Source: Acidimicrobiia bacterium (GTDB taxonomy: Bacteria; Actinomycetota; Acidimicrobiia; Spongiisociales; UBA5794). Taken from it: 33,821 bases of DNA. The DNA lies in the NCBI GenBank assembly GCA_030066715.1, contig JASJBC010000045.1, positions 1-33,821 of the forward strand, written 5' to 3'. Each line of letters starts with the position of its first letter. Positions within the stretch are counted from its first letter, which is position 1. The notes beneath the pieces were generated by a model, which saw only the letters and a program-made list of their open reading frames with translations, had not been told where the DNA came from and searched no databases. Shown here in pieces: positions 3,161 through 33,807 of the stretch. Position numbers and translations under genes: made by a program.

Positions 3161-3808
3161 TCACACCGTCACGAACTCGACGTCGTACTCCCGGGTAATG
3201 ATGACATCCGCACGAGGGCGGTGCTGAGAGATGATCTCGTGCTCCTTCTCGAGCACCCTCTCGATGAAGGGGTCGTACTCCTCGCGGGCTCGCTTCTGTC
3301 GGTGCGCCATTGTCTCCAGCCGATTCCTGGCGATGAAGACACGACGATCGACGTTCTCGCACAGAGAGGTGTACACGCCCTCGGCAATGACGACGTCGGC
3401 GCCTTCGAGGGAGATGGTCTCCGTGACGATCTGATTGTCGTCATAGATCACGAGTGGTTTCTCCACGCTGGCGGCCCCGGAGCGGGCATCGTGGAGATGC
3501 TGATCGAGCAAGTCGAGCCGAACCTCCGTCGTTCCCACCCAGGAGAAGTTGGCGCGCCTGGCGGCATCGTTGAAGCGAGGTGGTAGGACGTAGTAGTCGT
3601 CCTGCTGCAGGACGACGGCCTTCACGTTGTGTTCGCCGAGCGCATCGGCGAGGGCCTGTCCGGTCTCCGACTTCCCGCTGCCTGATTCGCCGGCGACCGT
3701 GATGGTGTAGCGGCGCTCCGTGGCTGCGATCTCCGCAAACAGCCGGTCGATGATCTGAGTGGCGGCGTTGCGGTGCTCGTCGCCTACGAGAATGATGTCG
3801 CCTTTCAT
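3161..3808 (-). CDS. Uridine kinase / phosphoribulokinase-family P-loop kinase
   Basis: Walker A AGESGSGKS, followed by the QQDDYYV motif typical of the Udk/PRK family. About 215 aa from the ATG at 3806-3808 (MKGDIILVGDE…). The longer six-frame ORF reaching 4081 has an N-terminal extension that is Arg-rich and non-homologous, and is rejected. Confidence 0.65.
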   Translation of the reverse strand: MKGDIILVGDEHRNAATQIIDRLFAEIAATERRYTITVAGESGSGKSETGQALADALGEHNVKAVVLQQDDYYVLPPRFNDAARRANFSWVGTTEVRLDLLDQHLHDARSGAASVEKPLVIYDDNQIVTETISLEGADVVIAEGVYTSLCENVDRRVFIARNRLETMAHRQKRAREEYDPFIERVLEKEHEIISQHRPRADVIITREYDVEFVTV

Positions 3809-4091
3809 GCGGCCATCGTACCGGTACGGCCACGAGCTCGGTTCACACGTGTTTGTCCTGCGGCCCGGGCTCGGGTGTACCCGAACTGGAACTCGTCGTC
3901 GGGGTCGCGCCTGGCGAGCCTGCCCTCGAGGAGCAGCAATGCCTGGTTGCCGGTGTCGGCAACCGAGTGAATGGCTTCGGCAAGCATCGACGACGAGCGA
4001 GTGAATGCGAACCCACGAACTTGGCGATCGCAATGCCCGGATTCGCAAGGAATGCGGCAATGACGACCCTCGTTGAACCACCTGCAGCCAT
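3809..4091 (-). pseudogene. Frameshifted, truncated remnant of a cation diffusion facilitator (CDF) metal-efflux gene
   Basis: Two adjacent minus-strand frames together reconstruct a CDF N-terminus. Frame A gives …RVVIAAFLANPGIAIAKFVGSHS (TM1). After a 1-nt frame change near 4000-4010, frame B gives SMLAEAIHSVADTGNQALLLLEGRLARRDPDDEFQFGYTRA. Compare canonical CDF …GSLALLADAxHSLSD…LLLG.R.SRRPAD.EHPFGHGRAE. The His/Asp of the first metal site (HSVAD) is retained, but the catalytic continuation is absent, because the uridine-kinase-like gene follows immediately. Confidence 0.35.
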
Positions 4092-4395: not shown

Positions 4396-5289
4396 TTATG
4401 CCAGAACCATGGCGGTCCCGGCAACGGCCAAGGCCGCACCGAACCAGGCGCCGCGGGGCGGCAGTTCCCGGGTCACCGCCCAGATGATCGGGAGCTGGAT
4501 GACCGGAGCGACCGACACCAGGATCGAAACGAGTCCCGGCGGGCCGCCGGCGAGAGCGATCAGCACCATTGTCTTGCCGATCACCATGCCGAGCGTGCCG
4601 GAGAGGATCACCAGCAGCCAGATACGGGCGGTGAGCTCGACCGGCATCCGGTTGCCGTTGCGGCGTTCGAACCATGGCATCAGGGCAAAGAGGCCGACGG
4701 TGCCTGCCACTGCCCGGACCGCCGCACCCGCCCACGGGTCGAGGGTCCCGTCGAAGACGGGGTCGGCAACGAGGACTGCGACGGCTTGCCCCAGCGCCCC
4801 GGCCAGGCCGAAGCCGACCCCGACCAGCAGGGAGCCGCGCACATCCTCCCATGTGTGCGACTGGCCCGGTCTGGTCCCGTAGGCGATGGCGAGGCTCACG
4901 CCGGCGAGCACGAGGACGGTCCCGAGCGCTCCGAGAACGCCGAAGCGTTCGTCGTATATGACCGCACTGATGATCGCAGTCAGCGGGGCGTTGACGGCGA
5001 ACAGCATCCCGGTGCGGCGGGGGCCGAGGCGCGCAAAGGCTTCGAACAGGGCGGCATCGCCAAGGGCAAGACCTACGAAGCCCGAGATGGCGAGGGGCAG
5101 CCAGTCGGTGGAGGCAACGGTGGGCCATCCCCCGACCGCCAGGCCGATGAGTGTCAGAGCCAGCGTTACGTAGACCATGCGGATGCGAACGAACCGCGGC
5201 CCTCCCAGCAGCCGCGATGGCTCGGCGGCCACCAGGCCGCCGACGGCCCAGGAGGAGGCGGCGAGCAATGCCGCCACCTGGAACGGCAC
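4396..5289 (-). CDS. EamA/DMT-superfamily transporter (10 TM)
   Basis: 297-aa protein that is hydrophobic throughout. Two repeated halves each carry about 5 TM helices and Gly-rich helix ends, the typical drug/metabolite transporter (EamA) architecture. Confidence 0.75.
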   Translation of the reverse strand: MPFQVAALLAASSWAVGGLVAAEPSRLLGGPRFVRIRMVYVTLALTLIGLAVGGWPTVASTDWLPLAISGFVGLALGDAALFEAFARLGPRRTGMLFAVNAPLTAIISAVIYDERFGVLGALGTVLVLAGVSLAIAYGTRPGQSHTWEDVRGSLLVGVGFGLAGALGQAVAVLVADPVFDGTLDPWAGAAVRAVAGTVGLFALMPWFERRNGNRMPVELTARIWLLVILSGTLGMVIGKTMVLIALAGGPPGLVSILVSVAPVIQLPIIWAVTRELPPRGAWFGAALAVAGTAMVLA

Positions 5290-5292
5290 GCT

Positions 5293-6036
5293 CTAGTTCC
5301 TGTCCCGGATGGCAAACCCGTACGGCAGTTCGAGCCGATGCTGCCGCAGCAGCTCGCCATCCGACAGGATCTCTTCTGTCGGGCCGGAGGCAACGATCGA
5401 GCCTCCGTCCATAACCACCGCGCGAGCGCACATCTCGTAGGCAAAGGGCAGGTCGTGAGTGACGATGAGCTGAGTCGTGTCGAGGCTGGACAGAGCCTCG
5501 CCGAGCTCGCGACGGCTCGCCGGATCCAGGTTGGACGTTGGTTCGTCGAGAACGAGGATCGACGGCTGCATCGCCAACACCCCGGCGATCGCCACCCGGC
5601 GCTTCTGGCCGAAGGACAGGTGGTTTGGTGGCCGGTTGGCGAGATCGGCCACCTCCATCACCTCGAGGGCCGACTGCACCCGCATTTCGAGATCAGGCCC
5701 GGTGAGCCCGAGGTTGCGCGGGCCGAACTCGACATCGTCGCGAACCGTCGGCATGAAGAGTTGGTCATCGGGATCCTGGAACACGATGCCGACGCGGCGG
5801 CGGATCTCCATGACGTTGTCGTCCGACAGTTGCAGACCCGACACCGCAACCGTCCCCCGTTGCGGCATGTGGATGCCGTTCATATGCAGAATCAGCGTTG
5901 TCTTCCCTGCGCCGTTGGGGCCGAGCAGCGCGACGTGCTCCCCGGGGTGGATGTGCAACTCGACGTCGTTCAATGCGGATGTGCCATCCGGATAGCTGAA
6001 TCCGAGACCGACGACTGAGATGGTTGGGACGCTCAC
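5293..6036 (-). CDS. cbiO: ECF transporter ATPase component (CbiO/NikO-type ABC ATP-binding protein)
   Basis: Walker A GPNGAGKTT. Q-loop. ABC signature LSFGQKRRV. Walker B ILVLDEPTS. H-loop VTHD. Probable GTG start at 6034-6036, overlapping the cbiQ stop (GTGA). Last gene of the cbiM-N-Q-O operon. Confidence 0.85.
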   Translation of the reverse strand: MSVPTISVVGLGFSYPDGTSALNDVELHIHPGEHVALLGPNGAGKTTLILHMNGIHMPQRGTVAVSGLQLSDDNVMEIRRRVGIVFQDPDDQLFMPTVRDDVEFGPRNLGLTGPDLEMRVQSALEVMEVADLANRPPNHLSFGQKRRVAIAGVLAMQPSILVLDEPTSNLDPASRRELGEALSSLDTTQLIVTHDLPFAYEMCARAVVMDGGSIVASGPTEEILSDGELLRQHRLELPYGFAIRDRN

Positions 6037-6800
6037 ATTGACCACCACGCAGCTGCGGCCACAACCCACGCGGTTACCGGGGCGAGCATCGCCACCGCCC
6101 ACTGCTGGATGGTCGCCGTGTCGCCGGGCCGCGTCGGCATCTGCCCGGTGTAGCCCCGGGAGGCCATCGCGAGATAGACCCTCTCTCCGCGCTCGTACGA
6201 GCGAACGAAGATCAGCCCCGCCGAGGTGGCATAGGGCTTGGCATGGCCGAGCCAGCGCGGATTGTGACCACGCGACTGCATGGCCACCCGCATGCGACGG
6301 AACTCACCGAGCACCACGTCCAGGTAGCGGATCATGAATCCCATGATGGCGGTGAGCACGCGGGGAACGCGGAGTGCCTCGAAGCCGCGCAACATCGAAG
6401 GTATGTCGGTCGTGCCGGCGAGCACTATCGACGTGAGCAGCCCCAGTGTTGCCTTGGCGAGAATGTTCCACATATCCCACAGCCCGGAGCGGGAGAGGTC
6501 GACACCAAGCACGGTGACGGTCTCGCCGGCAGCGAAGAAAGGGATCAACAGTGCGGCAATGATGAAGGGGGTCTCGATGAGCATGCGGGTGCCCACGAAG
6601 CGGGCGCCAAGGCGAGCCCAGGTCGCCAGGGTGAGCAGGATGGCCGCATAGATCAGGAACGCCCAGACTGCTTCTCGGGGAGTCGCCACGACCGCAAACA
6701 CGAATAGGAAGGCTGCGGCGATCTTCACCTGGGGGCGCAGCCGGTGCACCGGGGAATCGCCGTGTCGATAAAGGGCGTGGACGTGGCCACCACCCGCCAT
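6033..6800 (-). CDS. cbiQ: ECF transporter transmembrane T component (CbiQ/NikQ)
   Basis: 255-aa polytopic membrane protein with CbiQ-like conserved Arg-rich cytoplasmic loops (…RGFEALRVPRVL…). Its ATG overlaps the cbiN stop (ATGA), and its stop overlaps the cbiO start. Confidence 0.8.
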   Translation of the reverse strand: MAGGGHVHALYRHGDSPVHRLRPQVKIAAAFLFVFAVVATPREAVWAFLIYAAILLTLATWARLGARFVGTRMLIETPFIIAALLIPFFAAGETVTVLGVDLSRSGLWDMWNILAKATLGLLTSIVLAGTTDIPSMLRGFEALRVPRVLTAIMGFMIRYLDVVLGEFRRMRVAMQSRGHNPRWLGHAKPYATSAGLIFVRSYERGERVYLAMASRGYTGQMPTRPGDTATIQQWAVAMLAPVTAWVVAAAAWWSM

Positions 6801-7111
6801 CAGGGAACCTCAGACGAGGTCCGATTCGTGCGCCGGGCCAGCCAGAAGATGCCGTAGCCGATGGCAAGGGTCAGCAGCGTGCCGACCAGACCGGCAACCG
6901 CAGTGTTGACTCCGTCGTTGTCGGACAGGTTCTCGCCGTAGTCGGCGAGCGGCGAATCGGCCAGGCCGTGATCGGTGGCGCTCTCGGCAAAGCCCTCCTG
7001 CTCGGCTACAAACTCGAGGCCGTCAGGGTTCGATGAGGCAAACTGGGCGACCACCATCGCCACGAGAATGGCAACGACGAGACCAACGAGGAAGAGGCGC
7101 CGGTCCTTCAC
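6800..7111 (-). CDS. cbiN: Small 2-TM ECF transporter subunit (CbiN/NikN-type)
   Basis: 103 aa with N- and C-terminal TM helices flanking an acidic extracytoplasmic loop bearing NPDGLEF (compare CbiN GSDGEAE). GTG start overlapping the cbiM stop (GTGA). Position between M and Q is canonical for cbiMNQO/nikMNQO. Confidence 0.65.
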   Translation of the reverse strand: MKDRRLFLVGLVVAILVAMVVAQFASSNPDGLEFVAEQEGFAESATDHGLADSPLADYGENLSDNDGVNTAVAGLVGTLLTLAIGYGIFWLARRTNRTSSEVP

Positions 7112-7782
7112 GTGAGCACCTCTGTGCGCTGTCCGGCATAGTCGGGTGCGCCGTAGACGAGGTCGGGGCGGCTACGCACAACCGCACCGACTACCAGCGC
7201 GGTGATGACTCCTTCTCCTATGCCAATGAGCAAGTGGGTTCCGAGGAGGGCGGTGAACACCGTGCCGGTAGCCACGGTCGTGGTCCCCCCGATGATGTAC
7301 TGCAGCAGGAAGCCCATTGCGGAAAGCGGGACGGCGATTCCTGCGGCGATACCGGCAGCGAGAGTGACCCCGCGCCCGTCCTTGGGCATAACCCGCAGCA
7401 ACATGCGGTAGATGGCATAGCCACCAACGGCGCCGATGAAGCCCATGTTGAAGATGTTCAGACCGAGGGCACTCAGACCGCCGTCGGCAAAGACCATCCC
7501 CTGCACGATGAGCACGACCGAGAGCACGACAAAGGCTGCCCACGGGCCAATCAAGACTGCCGCCAGGACGCCACCGAGAAGGTGGCCACTAACGCCGATA
7601 GAGACAGGGAAGTTGACCATCTGCGCCGCAAAGACGAATGCGGCTACCAGACCGGCAAGCGGCACCTGCCGTTCGCTCAGGTACCTGCCGGTCTGTTTGA
7701 TGGCGGCACCGAGCCCGCCTGCGGCAGCTACGCCGAAGCCGGCGGAGGTCGCTCCGTTGATGAATCCGTCCGGTATGTGCAC
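7108..7782 (-). CDS. cbiM: ECF transporter substrate-specific component CbiM/NikM (Co2+/Ni2+ uptake)
   Basis: N-terminus (M)HIPDGF is the hallmark metal-binding terminus of CbiM/NikM. 7 TM helices. GTG start at 7780-7782, preceded by GGAGAGGGA RBS. First gene of a four-gene operon with overlapping junctions. Confidence 0.85.
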   Translation of the reverse strand: MHIPDGFINGATSAGFGVAAAGGLGAAIKQTGRYLSERQVPLAGLVAAFVFAAQMVNFPVSIGVSGHLLGGVLAAVLIGPWAAFVVLSVVLIVQGMVFADGGLSALGLNIFNMGFIGAVGGYAIYRMLLRVMPKDGRGVTLAAGIAAGIAVPLSAMGFLLQYIIGGTTTVATGTVFTALLGTHLLIGIGEGVITALVVGAVVRSRPDLVYGAPDYAGQRTEVLT

Positions 7783-7794
7783 CCGTCCCTCTCC

Positions 7795-7817
7795 TTATTG
7801 CGAACGCTTCGCAATAA
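7795..7817. promoter_or_regulatory. AT-rich palindromic operator (Nur/Fur-family-box-like) immediately upstream of cbiM
   Basis: TTATTGCGAA-cgc-TTCGCAATAA, perfect 10-bp inverted arms, 12 nt upstream of the cbiM RBS. Core TTGCGA-N5-TCGCAA matches the 6-5-6 architecture of the Streptomyces Nur box (tTGCaa-N5-ttGCAA). It is the most AT-rich spot in a 70-bp intergenic region. A Fur-family regulator gene lies 1.8 kb upstream on the same strand. Confidence 0.5.
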
Positions 7818-7853
7818 CATAGCGAGTCGAACGGGCCGCCTGCGACGCTTTGG

Positions 7854-9572
7854 CTATCGAGTGACCGGAATTGAGGGGAGGACGAGCCGGAAGACCGACT
7901 CTCCCTGCTCATACTCGTAGGTCAAATCCCCGTGCATGATCACGGCCAGCGACTTGGCGACGGTGAGGCCGAGACCGACGGATTCCGGCTGGCTCTGCAC
8001 GTCCTTCCGCGTTCGCGCATACGGCTGGAACATCGTGTCGCGTTGTCGAGACGGGATCGGAGGACCGTCGTCGCGGACTTCGACGACGGCACAGTCGCCG
8101 CTGCTGAAGGCAACGACACGCCGGCTGCCTCCGCCGTAGCGAACCGCATTGGTCGCAAGGTTGCGGATGACCTGCCGCACACGGCTCGGATCTGCGTAGG
8201 CCATCAGATCATCCTCGAGGTCCCAGCTGAACCCGTCATCCACCGTGGCGAGAGTTGTCGCCACCGTTTCCGCCAAATCGAAGGTGTGTGGCAGCACGGA
8301 GAGATTCCCGCCGGCGGCGCGGGCGGCGACCAGGAGGTCCTCCACGATGTCCGCCACGTCGTGGCTCTGTTCGGCCACGATGCCGAGCAACTCGTCACGC
8401 TCGGTCGCCGGGATGGAGGCGTCGGGCCGGGTGATCTCGTCGACGAGGCCGACGACGGCAGTCAACGGAGTGCGCAACTCGTGGCTCACGGTCGCGATGA
8501 ACTCGTCCTTGTAGCGAATCTGGTCGGCGAGGGCCAGCTCCGCCGTCTTCTGCGCCGTGATATCGGTGGAGATCAGGACGACCTTCCGTCGGTCTTCGCT
8601 CCCAGTGTTCCAGTTCATGACCTGGTGGTATGTGGCACCGTCGGCTTCGAAGGAGAGCTCAACCGAGCCCTGGCCACCCTCGAAGACGATGCGAGCCAGC
8701 ACGTCGGTGATGATCTGAGCATCGGCCCGTCGCATGGCCGTGACGTCCTCGCCGCCGCGGGCGAGAAAGAGGTCGCTGCCCGCCGTCTCGTTGAAGCCGA
8801 CCACGCGGATATGGGGGAGAAGGGTGATCGGGTCGATCTGCCCGCCTGCGATTCCTCTCTCGTAGTCGCGGAGAGTGCGGCAACCCTCGTCGAGGAGGAA
8901 GCTGCGCAACTCACGCAGGTCGAGCTCGACCACACCGACGGGGGCGGTTTCCATCAACCGCTCGTACTCAGCACGGCTTTGCTGGCCCGCGGTGCGGATC
9001 GCGATCGCAGCTGCAAAGGCCAACGTGGCAATGATCAGCGTTGTTGCTGTGTCGGTGAAGACCTGGGCCACCGAGTGGGTGACGGTCCAGCGCACGATGC
9101 TCACCGCGGCGACGAGCAGCATGACCCAGAATGCGGCCACCCTGGGCACCCATTTGCCTCCCAGGCTCAGGCCGAGCACGCCGGTCAGCGCAATGATCAC
9201 GGTGGGTGACGCATCGGTGAGCCGAACGAAGTCCTCGTCGATTGCACCGCCCACGATGGACACGAGGCCGGCGAGTGCGGCGATCACCAGGATGGTTCGC
9301 GGGTAGGCGCGGCGAGTCCGATCCATCCACAGCGCAAGCAGGGCCAGCAGCGTTGCCGCAACGAACTGCAGTCCCGACTCGGGAGTGCGGAGGCGGACCA
9401 GATCCATCAAGCCGATGAACGCAAGACATGCCGCGGCCAGCAGCAGCACGCGCACCATCCCGAGTTCGGCGCGGTCGGCAGTGCCCTGGAAGCCGCTGCC
9501 GACCCAGGTCTTGATCCGTGTCATCCATTCGGGCATATCGTTATCTATCGGCAATCTCGCCGTTAGGTACAC
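7854..9572 (-). CDS. Membrane-bound sensor histidine kinase (no cognate response regulator in window)
   Basis: 572 aa. N-terminal block of about 6 TM helices, then a central PAS-like region. HisKA H-box FIATVSHELRTPLTAVVGL. HATPase_c N/G1/G2 boxes (IRNLATNAVRYGG…DDGPPIP…GLGLTVAK). Confidence 0.8.
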   Translation of the reverse strand: MYLTARLPIDNDMPEWMTRIKTWVGSGFQGTADRAELGMVRVLLLAAACLAFIGLMDLVRLRTPESGLQFVAATLLALLALWMDRTRRAYPRTILVIAALAGLVSIVGGAIDEDFVRLTDASPTVIIALTGVLGLSLGGKWVPRVAAFWVMLLVAAVSIVRWTVTHSVAQVFTDTATTLIIATLAFAAAIAIRTAGQQSRAEYERLMETAPVGVVELDLRELRSFLLDEGCRTLRDYERGIAGGQIDPITLLPHIRVVGFNETAGSDLFLARGGEDVTAMRRADAQIITDVLARIVFEGGQGSVELSFEADGATYHQVMNWNTGSEDRRKVVLISTDITAQKTAELALADQIRYKDEFIATVSHELRTPLTAVVGLVDEITRPDASIPATERDELLGIVAEQSHDVADIVEDLLVAARAAGGNLSVLPHTFDLAETVATTLATVDDGFSWDLEDDLMAYADPSRVRQVIRNLATNAVRYGGGSRRVVAFSSGDCAVVEVRDDGPPIPSRQRDTMFQPYARTRKDVQSQPESVGLGLTVAKSLAVIMHGDLTYEYEQGESVFRLVLPSIPVTR

Positions 9573-9587
9573 CGATAAGTGCGGCGG

Positions 9588-10028
9588 TCAGGTGTCGGTT
9601 GTGGCGCAGTCGGGGCAGGTGCCGGTTATCGCAAAGTGCGTGGGGTCCACCTCGAATCCGGTGGTCTCCTGGAGCTGCGTGAGCCACTCGGAGAGGCCTG
9701 CCGCCGGCACTGCAGCGGTCGTTCCGCAGCGGTTGCAGACGACGTGCTGATGCGTTGCTTCAGACGCCAAGTGATAGACAGCCGCGCCATGCCCCAGATG
9801 ACTGTGGACGAGGAGGCCCGCCTCTTCGAGCGCGTCGAGGGTGCGGTAGACGGTCGATTGATCGGCACGTGCTGCCGGATCGGCTTGCACTTCTTCGAGT
9901 ATGGAAGCGGCGGTGAGGTGTTCGCTGTGCCGGCGCGCCACGATCGAGCAGACGGCACGGCGCGCCTCCGTGATCCGGAGACCCTGGTTGCGTAGGGCAT
10001 TGATGAGCGTCTCGGAGTCGATGTGCAT
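9588..10028 (-). CDS. Fur-family metalloregulator (Fur/Zur/Nur-like)
   Basis: 146 aa. N-terminal winged-helix DNA-binding region with LRITEARRAV. His-rich metal site HSHLGHG…HQHVVCNRCG, and a second CxxC (TGTCPDC) forming the structural Cys4 site. Classic Fur-family layout. Confidence 0.8.
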   Translation of the reverse strand: MHIDSETLINALRNQGLRITEARRAVCSIVARRHSEHLTAASILEEVQADPAARADQSTVYRTLDALEEAGLLVHSHLGHGAAVYHLASEATHQHVVCNRCGTTAAVPAAGLSEWLTQLQETTGFEVDPTHFAITGTCPDCATTDT

Positions 10029-10035
10029 CCGACGC

Positions 10036-11988
10036 CTACCGTAGGCGAGCCCGGCCCGGCATGAAGACCATGGTCAACGTCCGCCTCATGATTCTCGTGT
10101 CGAGCGCCATCGAGCGCTTTGCGACGTACTCCTCGTCGTAGCGGGTCCGCTCCGTCGCTGATATCTCATCCCGTCCCGATACTTGAGCCAGACCCGTCAC
10201 CCCTGGTTTCACGGTGAAGCGGATGCTGTCCCGGCCGATGATGTCGGCCTCGGCCGGCACCAGGGGACGGGGACCAACGAGGGACATGCGGCCGAGCAGA
10301 ACATCCCATAGGTTGGGAAGCTCATCGAGCGACAATCGGCGCAGCACCTTGCCCACCTTGGTGATCCTGGGGTCGTCGGCAATGCGAATGGTGGCGGTCT
10401 CGTTGTTCATCATCGCCTCTTCGAGCTGGGCCAGGTGCTGGGCAAAGAGCTCCTCGCCCCCGTCGGCGCGCATGGTACGGATCTTCAGCATGGCGAAGTT
10501 GCCTCCGTCCTTGCCCACTCGCTCCTGGCGGAAGAAGGCCGGTCCCGGCGAATCCAGCTTCACGGCGACGACGCAGACGACCAGGACGGGAAGAGAGAGC
10601 ACGAGCACGACGGCCGACACGGCGATGTCCACAGTGCGCTTGGCCAGCAGATATGCGGCGCCCGGAGCGCGGTCCGCCGCAGTTGGTCTGCTGATGGCTC
10701 CGATCGCGAGAGCTGCCAGCGCCACCGCCTCGCCGGCGATGAAGGACGTGGCCACACGCTGGAACGGATCACCGTTGGACAAGGCCAAGGCGATGACGGC
10801 AGCCGCAAGGCCGATCAGCCAGGAGATGCCGAGCACCCTGGGCTTGCCCTGGGCCACGAGAACCTGAGCAACGAACAGCCCCGACCCGGCGAGGACTACC
10901 CCGGCGGCGACGAGGGCGGCGGGCATCGCCTCGGGCCGGAACTCCGCTCCAAAGGCGACGTCCACAACCCAGGGCCCGACGAAGTAGCCGGCAAGGGAGC
11001 CGAGTACGGCCAGGCCGAGGCCGGCGAAGCCGATGCCGCGCGCCCATGCAGCAAGTTCCCTGCGCTCTTGGCGGGCGGCCATCTCGGTGAACGGCGGGAG
11101 GACGCGGGCAATGAGGTTGTAGCCGAAGGTGAGCGGGGCACGAAAGAGAGTGAACGTGGCGAAGACGACGCTGATCAGGGCCTGAGTGGCCCCGAGCATT
11201 GCCGCAACCACCGGACCGGCCAGCAGCAGTGCCTGCGACGCCGCCGAGGAGAGGACGAGGCCGCCGAGGAGCCCTTGGTCACCGACTGTCGCTGCGTCCT
11301 TCGCCGTTATGGCCTGCCGATCGACCGCAACTCTGCGGAACGGCCGCCACACCAAGGTGATGATCGGCCCGACAATGAGTGCGATCGCCAGCCCGGACGC
11401 CGAGGGACGCAGGGTGAGAACGAGGATCGCCACCAGCAGCCGCAGCAGGTTGGCGCCGCCGCTCGCATATCCGTACTCCCGGAAGCGTCTCCAGCCTGCC
11501 AGGTGACCACGTGCCGCCGCATAGCCGGCGTGCATCGCAACAGTCAACGCCGTGAAGGCGATGAACCGGCGGTCACCGTTGAGGAATCGATCGACACCGA
11601 GCCAGGCGAAGAGGGTTGCCGCAGCAACGGTGCCGCCGGCGAGCCACCAAGCCGTGCGAGGCAACCCGGAGCGCTCGGGATCGAGGGTGAGGCGCCGCAC
11701 CACGAGTTGCTCAACGGGCAAGAGGAACACAATGAAGGTGAGGAAGTGGATCGTCAGCAAGACGGACACGGGCGCAAACGCAGTTGCTCCCAAGGTCCGA
11801 CCGCCGATGATCTGGTAGGCATAGGCGGCAAGCCCGGCCAGGAGGCTGCCGGCCAGGATGTGTCCTGTGCCGTCCTCCGACAACCGCGCAAAACGGGTCC
11901 GGGTCGATCCGGCTTCCTGTTGGGGTATGGGATCCGAAGGGTCTTCCAGCATATCCAGTGTGACGGGCGCGTCGCCTGTCCACACCAT
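10036..11988 (-). CDS. Fusion protein: N-terminal polytopic flippase-like (MOP/Wzx-like) membrane domain plus C-terminal bacterial sugar transferase (Bac_transf, undecaprenyl-phosphate phosphoglycosyl transferase) domain
   Basis: 650 aa. Residues about 40-440 form roughly 10-12 TM helices, Gly/Ala-rich. Residues about 450-650 carry a single TM followed by the Bac_transf signature (…DELPNLWDVLLGRMSLVGPRP…KPGVTGLAQVSGR…). The PGT domain call is high confidence. The identity of the N-terminal domain (flippase-like) is inferred from topology only. Confidence 0.75.
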   Translation of the reverse strand: MVWTGDAPVTLDMLEDPSDPIPQQEAGSTRTRFARLSEDGTGHILAGSLLAGLAAYAYQIIGGRTLGATAFAPVSVLLTIHFLTFIVFLLPVEQLVVRRLTLDPERSGLPRTAWWLAGGTVAAATLFAWLGVDRFLNGDRRFIAFTALTVAMHAGYAAARGHLAGWRRFREYGYASGGANLLRLLVAILVLTLRPSASGLAIALIVGPIITLVWRPFRRVAVDRQAITAKDAATVGDQGLLGGLVLSSAASQALLLAGPVVAAMLGATQALISVVFATFTLFRAPLTFGYNLIARVLPPFTEMAARQERRELAAWARGIGFAGLGLAVLGSLAGYFVGPWVVDVAFGAEFRPEAMPAALVAAGVVLAGSGLFVAQVLVAQGKPRVLGISWLIGLAAAVIALALSNGDPFQRVATSFIAGEAVALAALAIGAISRPTAADRAPGAAYLLAKRTVDIAVSAVVLVLSLPVLVVCVVAVKLDSPGPAFFRQERVGKDGGNFAMLKIRTMRADGGEELFAQHLAQLEEAMMNNETATIRIADDPRITKVGKVLRRLSLDELPNLWDVLLGRMSLVGPRPLVPAEADIIGRDSIRFTVKPGVTGLAQVSGRDEISATERTRYDEEYVAKRSMALDTRIMRRTLTMVFMPGRARLR

Positions 11989-19111: not shown

Positions 19112-19516
19112 TCAGGCCTGGGCTGCCAGTTCAAGGAGACGCTGCATGGCGCGGATTGCTCGTTTCGCTTCTGTCACCGTTGGGTCGGTTTGCTCGTACT
19201 GCGCCTTGTTCTTTGCGGACAGCAGAGTCGCTAGCTCCCTTCTCGCAGACGTCCCAAGGTCGCCCGCCTGGCCGAGCAGGTCCAAGGCCTGTTGATGGTC
19301 ACTTCCGGCAGCGCGCTGTCCAAGGCGTCGACAGCAGATCGCGTCGGCAGCGGCGATGCCGGCCAGCACGGCATTGCTAACCGCTGCCGACCTCGCTGGC
19401 CCGTCTGATGCGAAGGGATCCAATTCGGCTAGTTCGGCGAACGCTTTGGCCTGTTGATGCCTCTGCGCACCGTCTTGCCGATCGCAACGCCTGGTACGGG
19501 ACGTCTTCTTGGCCAT
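19112..19516 (-). CDS. Putative HEPN-domain protein (toxin partner of the upstream nucleotidyltransferase)
   Basis: 134 aa, all-helical, with conserved-looking R/H positions. Its start overlaps the stop of the upstream wHTH-NTase gene by 1 nt, the classic MNT-HEPN operon order. No canonical Rx4-6H motif is obvious, so the family call is tentative. Confidence 0.5.
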   Translation of the reverse strand: MAKKTSRTRRCDRQDGAQRHQQAKAFAELAELDPFASDGPARSAAVSNAVLAGIAAADAICCRRLGQRAAGSDHQQALDLLGQAGDLGTSARRELATLLSAKNKAQYEQTDPTVTEAKRAIRAMQRLLELAAQA

Positions 19517-20106
19517 CAGGTGTTGTCCGTCGCCACGAGGTCGATACGTTCCGCTTCGATGCTGGCAAAGAGGCTCGGAGATGTTTCTGCTAATCGCTCG
19601 AACTCACTCGTCGTGTAGTGAAGCAGGTTGCATTCGTTGCCTGTCAGCCGGTTGATCCGCGGCGCAATGTCCTGCTCTCGCTCCCTCGAGGATGCGTCGT
19701 CACTCCAGACGAGCACGATGTCGATGTCGCTCTCCTCGTTGGCCGAGTTGGTTGCGAGGGATCCAAAGAGGATTGCCTGCCGAACTGTTGGAGCTTCCTC
19801 GACAATGATTGCTCCCATAGCGTCCAGAAGCTGTCTCCTCAGATCCACGATCTGTAGCACGAACGGCGCGAGTATGTGTTCTCTGTTCAAGGTGTTGAGC
19901 ACAGCGTTACCTGCTGTGACCTGGGTAACCAAGCCGTGTGCCGCAAGTTCGTCCAGAGCGTTCTGCACGCCCTGCTGGCTCACTCTTCGGTGGGCGAGTC
20001 GCATGACTTCACGCCCAGACAAGGGCTTGGTTGTACCCGCGAGGACCTCAAGTACTCGACCGGCGAGACTCGGGATGAGCGAGGTAAGGGGATGGCGGAG
20101 GTTCAT
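19516..20106 (-). CDS. wHTH-fused minimal nucleotidyltransferase (MNT/MntA-like antitoxin)
   Basis: 196 aa. N-terminal winged-helix (…LSGREVMRLAHRRVSQQGVQNALDELAAHGLV…). Polymerase-beta-type NTase motif ILFGSLATNSANEESDIDIVLV (GS-x9-13-DxD). GC about 55%, versus about 68% in flanking genes. Confidence 0.7.
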   Translation of the reverse strand: MNLRHPLTSLIPSLAGRVLEVLAGTTKPLSGREVMRLAHRRVSQQGVQNALDELAAHGLVTQVTAGNAVLNTLNREHILAPFVLQIVDLRRQLLDAMGAIIVEEAPTVRQAILFGSLATNSANEESDIDIVLVWSDDASSREREQDIAPRINRLTGNECNLLHYTTSEFERLAETSPSLFASIEAERIDLVATDNT

Positions 20107-20153
20107 ATGCCAAGCATAGTTGGCATATGACCATTTGAATAGGCATTTGCCAA
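20104..20153. promoter_or_regulatory. Cluster of TTGGCA/TGCCAA inverted half-sites overlapping the MNT start codon (candidate autoregulatory TA operator)
   Basis: CATATGCCAA-gcatag-TTGGCATATG is a perfect 10-bp inverted repeat that includes the ATG. A third site …GGCATTTGCCAA follows 20 nt further upstream, preceded by TTGACT-like -35 sequence on the minus strand. Confidence 0.35.
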
Positions 20154-33784: not shown

Positions 33785-33807
33785 GGAGTTCCGCGGTGCG
33801 GAACTCC
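33785..33807 (+). terminator. Stem-loop downstream of lnt (possible terminator)
   Basis: GGAGTTCCGC-ggt-GCGGAACTCC, a perfect 10-bp stem 14 nt after the lnt stop. No U-tract. Confidence 0.35.

Follow-up and report, generated by a model that had tools for sequence, protein, structure and literature searches.

In Streptomyces coelicolor, the regulator Nur reportedly controls nikMNOQ, nikABCDE and sodF (Ahn et al. 2006; An et al. 2009), and to our knowledge, as far as a limited literature search goes, a Nur/Nur-box switch has been characterised experimentally only in Streptomyces. This Fur-family protein is strictly nickel-selective, it binds the nikM promoter of its host in a nickel-dependent manner, and its footprint-derived operator, the Nur box, reads tTGCaa-N5-ttGCAA (PMC2691836). 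A second kind of nickel switch is built on NikR, a nickel-loaded repressor that is encoded next to its target and shuts off the nickel importer (PMC2667541). The locus described here lies on a contig of 33,821 bp, called the window as a whole below, from an uncultured bacterium of the Acidimicrobiia. It consists of a nur-like gene, the gene of an orphan membrane histidine kinase and the nikMNQO genes of an energy-coupling factor (ECF) transporter, all on the minus strand, with a sugar transferase gene upstream, an EamA gene downstream and a palindrome directly before nikM. Our reading, to which we assign a probability of about 0.8, is that of a Nur-type nickel switch, in which nickel-loaded Nur would repress nikMNQO through a 6-5-6 operator and the kinase would have no part.

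The regulator and its predicted operator

The features on which the switch would depend are the following, with positions counted in the window.

9588-10028, minus strand: nur-like gene for a Fur-family metalloregulator of the nickel type, 146 aa (PF01475 at 4e-23, residues 15-128).
7816-7821, minus strand: -10-like hexamer TATGTT (TAnnnT), assigned to a presumed promoter of nikM; it overlaps the palindrome at its left end and is conserved in related loci.
7795-7817, unstranded: predicted Nur-box operator TTATTGCGAA-GCG-TTCGCAATAA, recognised as an inverted repeat, by a position weight matrix (PWM) and by conservation upstream of nikM.
7787-7794, minus strand: nikM Shine-Dalgarno sequence GGAGAGGG, read from the sequence and immediately adjoining the operator's right arm.
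7108-7782, minus strand: nikM, the substrate-capture (S) component (PF01891 at 1e-56; GTG start).

As for the regulator, the initial annotation of this DNA had placed a Fur-family gene on the strand of the transporter, with the kinase between the two, and the PF01475 match and the common orientation confirm this. When compared with all PDB sequences, the protein finds its best match in 3EYY, the S. coelicolor Nur (E 9.5e-27, 97 bits), whereas the other Fur, Zur and PerR structures come in at 1e-13 or worse (≤55 bits). The identity to S. coelicolor Nur is ~40-45% over 130 residues, and none of the NCBIfam models for Fur, Zur, PerR and Irr reaches its cut-off on the protein. The nickel site of Nur, H70/H72/H126 in S. 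coelicolor numbering, is present as H75/H77/H131, residues that show no variation across 32 homologues or across the 80 genome loci of the comparison given below; of the M-site, H33/H88/H90 are kept, as H37/H93/H95. The nickel-site triad is found only in Nur orthologues, and each of its histidines is essential for DNA binding (PMC2691836). Because 3EYY is by far the best solved relative and the nickel-site histidines are invariant, the 146-aa protein is, as judged by homology, a Nur-type nickel sensor and a homologue of the Streptomyces regulator.

Another point concerns the N-terminus of this protein, which reads Met-His-Ile (window 10020-10028). Of 120 close homologues, 95 begin with (M/V)-His, and in a further 10 an internal MH lies close to the called start. 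The neighbouring NikM begins with Met-His-Ile as well, where Met1 and His2 are nickel ligands, and HypA has a nickel site at its N-terminal Met-His-Glu; S. coelicolor Nur is without such an N-terminus. The Met-His start of the regulator could provide a further site for nickel, or be a coincidence. We see an outside chance that the locus holds more than a simple switch, in one of two ways: the kinase might sit in a conserved island for metal homeostasis (nur, kinase, nikMNQO, EamA permease, CDF efflux pump) and relay a membrane or envelope signal to metal import or efflux via an unlinked regulator, or the Met-His start might form an additional site, similar to those of NikM and HypA, that retunes the sensor.

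With regard to the operator, the palindrome, which the initial annotation had called near-perfect, is a perfect inverted repeat with 10-nt arms and a 3-nt spacer, and its core, TTGCGA-N5-TCGCAA (7798-7814), fits the published 6-5-6 Nur box, a likeness that the initial annotation had also drawn. Two of its details need correction. The palindrome was said to lie 12 nt upstream of the ribosome-binding site; in fact the distance of 12 nt is that to the GTG start of nikM, and its 3' arm directly touches the Shine-Dalgarno sequence. Likewise, the G+C content, given as 70% for the context, is 64% for the window. The 71-nt intergenic region that separates the kinase and nikM genes has the coding-strand sequence ...gcTATGTTATTGCGAAGCGTTCGCAATAAGGAGAGGGACGGGTG.

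The core is the sole zero-mismatch match in the window, and the palindrome is the only PWM match there (29.3 bits). No further copy of the box occurs in the window at ≤1 mismatch or ≥12 PWM bits, so that the regulon is not definable within this genome. Perfect inverted repeats with arms of ≥10 nt number 5 in the window, against ~0.9 expected; the palindrome alone is not statistically remarkable, and its significance was therefore tested by, and is drawn from, conservation in related loci.

The comparison covers 80 loci that encode regulator homologues, taken from species-representative genomes, and 970 kb were scanned with the PWM (individual loci are designated L followed by a number). A nikM homologue lies beside the regulator gene in 26 of the 80, in tandem in 23 and divergently in 3, and every one of these 26 carries the box upstream of nikM (at least 9/12 core positions of TTGCAA-N5-TTGCAA). 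In the tandem loci the distance from box to start codon is 9-19 nt, and the box also precedes nikM in L090 and L091. The extended consensus is gCTAtnCTTrTTGCrA-N5-TyGCAAyAAGgag, in which the half-sites are kept in sequence and vary symmetrically (TTGCAA/TTGCAA or TTGCGA/TCGCAA), while the 5-nt spacer is variable. Immediately 5' of the box the related loci keep a gCTAtnCT / TAnnnT element, and 3' of it they have a purine-rich AAGGAG/AAGAGG tract. Since the box is flanked directly by the TAnnnT on its 5' side and by the ribosome-binding site on its 3' side, the layout is that of a repressor site over a presumed -10 element and transcription start.

The gene association of the box points in the same direction. 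The PWM, symmetrised and built from nikM sites, returns 37 sites at or above its threshold of 12 bits in the 970 kb, against 0-6 in shuffles. The nikM training sites account for 25 of the 37, and the other 12 include two before genes of NicO-family nickel transporters and a further two next to ZnuA-type ABC genes, with a regulator gene adjoining in each case. A scan of metagenome contigs for the exact 20-base extended box gave at least 81 sites; among the matches listed, 16 stand before NikM genes, 14 before NicO-like genes and 1 before ZnuA, 11 flank a Fur-family gene, and some of the remaining 39 lie beside genes for a TonB-dependent receptor, a FecCD permease, a ZIP transporter or a nicotianamine-synthase-like protein. 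Taken together, the genomic and metagenomic neighbours link the box with the regulator and with genes of metal uptake, mainly that of nickel. Further copies, to which the initial annotation had looked for confirmation, are thus found before NicO genes in relatives and metagenomes, if not a second time in the window.

The box stays directly before nikM whatever has been inserted after nur, be it the kinase, a 144-aa open reading frame (ORF), a glyoxalase gene or an ORF of ~98 aa. Conversely, nur, box and nikMNQO are absent together from L092 and L093, and this co-absence supports the three as one functional module. No Nur box lies upstream of nur in the tandem loci, so that nur is probably not autoregulated there; in the window, it may be transcribed together with the sugar transferase gene that ends 7 nt upstream.

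The gap between nur and nikM has gained different genes by lineage: a glyoxalase/VOC gene in L012 (8506-8988), ORFs of ~98 aa in L030 (8213-8512) and L036 (3573-3869) and, between nur and the nikM box of L090, a 144-aa ORF without a Pfam match (7753-8187). As for the other perfect inverted repeats in the window with arms of ≥10 nt, the four lie at 1103-1132, 3596-3616, 20103-20130 and 33785-33807. The A+T-richer repeat at 20103-20130 overlaps the start of an ORF (19516-20106, minus strand) where the codon-bias filter called no confident gene.

How would such a switch operate? Ni(II) bound at the Nur-specific His3 site would allow the Nur dimer to bind 7798-7814. The operator fills the gap between the -10-like TATGTT and the nikM ribosome-binding site, so that RNA polymerase would be excluded and nikMNQO, perhaps with the downstream EamA gene, would be shut off. 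When nickel is scarce, apo-Nur would leave the DNA and the importer would be made. There is experimental evidence for repression of this kind in Streptomyces.

Nickel or cobalt as the substrate

The remaining transporter genes are listed here.

6800-7111, minus strand: nikN-type small membrane subunit with a PDGLE domain (PF13190 at 3e-22).
6033-6800, minus strand: nikQ, ECF T component (PF02361 (CbiQ) and TIGR02454, both above cut-off).
5293-6036, minus strand (ORF to 6102): nikO, ECF ATPase (ABC_tran present).

The nikM, nikN, nikQ and nikO genes overlap or abut, with Q and O in the same operon as M. For nikO, the 247-aa product overlaps the nikQ stop by 4 nt and agrees with the 247-aa orthologues called in L090 and L091; the ECF_ATPase families are its top matches, yet they stay below their cut-offs.

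Is the metal nickel, or is it cobalt? The best PDB match of the window NikM is TtNikM2 (4M58) at 5e-28, as opposed to 3.5e-10 for the Rhodobacter CbiM (5X3X). Its N-terminus is (V/M)HIPDG, i.e., (f)Met-His-Ile-Pro-Asp-Gly, and in the alignment M1, H2 and H67 correspond to Met1, His2 and His67, the nickel ligands defined in TtNikM2 (PMC3945884), H67 without a gap against its counterpart. The protein shows what is expected of an M component, namely Met1-His2, the His67 ligand and the extra N-terminal transmembrane segment. The initial annotation had looked to the residues that distinguish NikM from CbiM; here NikM2 is the closest structural relative and the small subunit is not CbiN, but the ligand residues are common to NikM and CbiM and TtNikM2 also binds cobalt, so that the ligands do not decide the metal.

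Another point is the small subunit, which gives no match to CbiN (PF02553) even at E≤10. CbiN, to which NikN bears no relation in sequence, is the mark of a cobalt system (PMC2667541). That the PDGLE protein corresponds to NikN is suggested by the occurrence of PDGLE domains fused to CbiM-family proteins; a literature search for a link between PDGLE and NikN gave nothing relevant. With regard to RNA elements, no Rfam family matches anywhere in the window at gathering thresholds, and a permissive Rfam scan of 7600-10200 gave nothing relevant, a cobalamin riboswitch included, as the initial annotation had expected. Among the window ORFs scanned against Pfam (several, mostly beyond 29 kb, were outside the scan), there is no gene for cobalamin synthesis and none for urease, hydrogenase or SodN. 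Neither CbiN nor a cobalamin-riboswitch or B12-gene context, the marks of a cobalt CbiMNQO, is thus seen at this locus.

Some observations weigh against a nickel switch of the kind proposed. The M-site residue H86 of Nur is replaced by Ala91 in the window regulator, at a position that is variable across the family; in S. coelicolor Nur, H86A had no effect on DNA binding (PMC2691836). A sigma-70 consensus scan of 7600-10300 gave nothing, and the assignment of the -10 element consequently draws on conservation only. No sodF or sodN target is seen in the 33.8 kb of the genome that are covered. Exact copies of the extended box also lie beside Fur-family genes whose products are without the Nur triad (24-32% identity, without His70/His72). 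Finally, the NCBIfam matches of the transporter are named cobalt transporter, all of them below cut-off, and TtNikM2 binds both nickel and cobalt (PMC3945884).

The last two points, along with the cobalt-based Pfam names and the ligands shared by NikM and CbiM, are what one would expect of a mainly cobalt-importing CbiMNQO with a regulator that senses cobalt or both metals. This alternative is nevertheless improbable: the small subunit has no CbiN domain, NikM2 is a much closer relative than the Rhodobacter CbiM, there is no B12 riboswitch and no cobalamin-synthesis gene among the ORFs scanned, the regulator has Nur's nickel site, the S. coelicolor Nur being strictly selective for nickel, and the same box precedes NicO-family transporters. 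The PDGLE subunit in place of CbiN, the missing riboswitch and B12 genes, the Nur-type regulator and the boxes before NicO genes all favour nickel, and the position of NikM2 as the closest structural relative was counted on the same side. The transporter is, by these comparisons, probably a Nik-type nickel importer, and it may transport cobalt as well. The proposal with which the analysis began, of a nickel-type NikMNQO under direct Nur-like repression, is well supported by the intact nickel site, the box in 26 of 26 loci, the NicO boxes and the lack of CbiN and of a riboswitch.

Exclusive use of the extended box by Nur-type proteins was considered, and rejected on account of the exact copies that flank Fur-family genes without the nickel-site triad. 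These copies were found on the metagenome contigs L131, L132, L133, L124, L100, L104, L139, L162 and L169, and the opposite flank of the box is taken in some of them by a gene for a nicotianamine-synthase-like protein or a ZIP transporter. A 6-5-6 TTGCAA operator may be used by Fur subfamilies besides Nur.

The orphan kinase and the neighbouring genes

Between regulator and transporter lie two further features.

7854-9536, minus strand: orphan membrane histidine kinase gene (HisKA and HATPase_c), 51 nt after the nur-like gene.
9546-9553, minus strand: TGCCGATA motif, candidate -10-like element of the kinase gene, assigned by conservation, 9 nt before the kinase ATG.

The kinase has ~5-6 N-terminal transmembrane segments, a PAS-like region, and DHp and CA domains. 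Across 17 homologues there is no variation in the H-box, SHELRTPL, or in the N, G1, F and G2 boxes, and no metal-binding, His- or Cys-rich motif is conserved in the sensor region of these proteins. The initial annotation was right in finding no response regulator nearby: tblastn with four receiver queries reveals no receiver domain in the 33.8-kb window (best E 0.8), the same queries do find response regulators in other loci, and no receiver gene lies next to the kinase homologues. The kinase is a true orphan.

The suggestion that it adds an unusual layer to the control of the transporter is not supported. The kinase is present in only 1 of the 80 genome loci (L001, the closest), the others having nur directly before nikM or a different insert. 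Its orthologues, at 52-91% identity, are confined to contigs of the closest Nur clade, and homologues at 37-45% identity are orphans too, in unrelated neighbourhoods. In all kinase-bearing loci the TGCCGATA motif stands 8-12 nt before the kinase ATG, with no Shine-Dalgarno sequence; it was aligned in the window, L001, L085, L090 and L091, and it is also present in L092, which has no nur. The conserved motif and the missing Shine-Dalgarno sequence suggest that the kinase has its own putative, possibly leaderless, promoter. In L092 (1-9596) and L093 (1-9405), metagenome contigs of the same clade, kinase and motif are kept without nur, box and nikMNQO, in the order sugar transferase, kinase, 144-aa ORF, 146-aa ORF, EamA, CDF, PRK. 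Because of its restriction to a sub-clade, its distant orphan homologues, its own motif and its persistence without nur, box and nik genes, the kinase appears to be a clade-specific insertion, an unrelated passenger outside the nickel switch.

Could it still be part of nickel control, acting through an unlinked response regulator as a further input to the expression of nikMNQO or nur? The order nur-kinase-nikMNQO is kept in at least 6 contigs as the kinase identity falls from 91% to ~52-59%, and the kinase motifs are intact. We consider this very unlikely, given that nur directly precedes nikM, with no kinase, in most related loci, that unrelated genes occupy the same insertion place in other lineages, that the homologues at 37-45% identity are orphans elsewhere, that L092 and L093 keep the kinase and TGCCGATA without the rest of the module, and that nothing rich in His or Cys is conserved as a motif in the sensor region.

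That the palindrome acts as an RNA hairpin, terminating the kinase transcript or sequestering the nikM ribosome-binding site, is hardly credible: the stem, with ten perfect base pairs and a loop of 3 nt, would be stable, and it lies 36 nt past the kinase stop codon with its 3' arm abutting the Shine-Dalgarno sequence, but no T-run follows it, an intrinsic terminator scan of 7600-10300 gave nothing, no Rfam family matches, the element is kept in loci without the kinase and, in L090, behind a different gene, the conserved TAnnnT 5' of it would put the transcription start inside the left arm, and the half-site TTGCrA is kept across distant genomes while the spacer varies, which argues for a dimeric protein site and not for a stem kept only by pairing. 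An ASdes small RNA match inside the kinase gene (21.7 bits against a 40-bit cut-off, opposite strand) was dismissed as chance.

The genes on the two sides of the locus are the following.

10036-11988, minus strand: sugar transferase gene (Bac_transf), ending 7 nt upstream of the nur-like gene.
4396-5289, minus strand: EamA-family permease gene (PF00892), starting 3 nt after the nikO stop.

The EamA gene is possibly co-transcribed with nikMNQO. Its position is the same in L090 and L091, and it is also kept in L092 and L093 without the nik genes. Beyond it, the window holds the remnant of a cation-efflux (CDF) gene (3808-4091, minus strand), of which the ~95 first codons are left (tblastn fragments 4091-4041 and 4002-3808); the remnant has merged with a downstream PRK-family gene into one 306-aa ORF (3161-4081). 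An intact CDF gene of 315 aa occupies the matching place in L090-L093, and L001 has none. This metal-efflux gene appears to have decayed in the lineage of the window.

The locus among known metal switches

What is gained from this locus? It would extend the Nur/Nur-box nickel switch to uncultured Acidimicrobiia, where the regulator usually shares one locus with its target, and it provides a comparative definition of the operator, CTTrTTGCrA-N5-TyGCAAyAAG. In addition, annotations as "cobalt transporter" in Acidimicrobiia genomes can be corrected to probable nickel importers. The understanding of nickel homeostasis is left unchanged.

Among the described systems, the cbiMNQO importers under B12-riboswitch control share the ECF architecture and homologous M, Q and O components, but they have CbiN and a cobalamin riboswitch leader, in place of which a PDGLE-type N subunit and a predicted protein operator in the 71-nt intergenic region are found here. 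The nikMNQO and nikABCDE systems controlled by NikR, in E. coli and in many bacteria and archaea, resemble the locus in having a nickel-loaded repressor encoded next to the target. However, NikR is of the ribbon-helix-helix type and has another operator, whereas here a Fur-family protein is the regulator and no NikR gene was seen. The classical operators of Fur, Zur and PerR, 7-1-7 inverted repeats, are likewise palindromes that overlap the promoter and are bound by a dimeric Fur-family repressor; in their case, the half-sites are spaced by 1 nt and not by 5 nt. An et al. ascribed this difference in spacing to a nickel-site-dependent conformation of Nur (PMC2691836).

The closest counterpart remains the Nur system of S. 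coelicolor, with which the locus has in common a Fur-family regulator bearing the His3 site for nickel, a palindromic 6-5-6 operator of the type TTGCAA-N5-TTGCAA, and an ECF-type nikM promoter as the predicted target. It differs from that system in the M-site, where H86 is Ala, in the conserved Met-His start of the Acidimicrobiia proteins, in the extension of the operator to 10-nt arms (CTTrTTGCrA), in the lack of a visible sodF or sodN target in the 33.8 kb covered, and in gene order, the regulator gene being linked to nikMNQO here and, across the Acidimicrobiia, usually placed directly upstream. These are variations on a known theme: the locus repeats, in another class of actinobacteria, the arrangement of Nur and nikM known from S. 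coelicolor, and its metal switch is of an ordinary, already understood kind.

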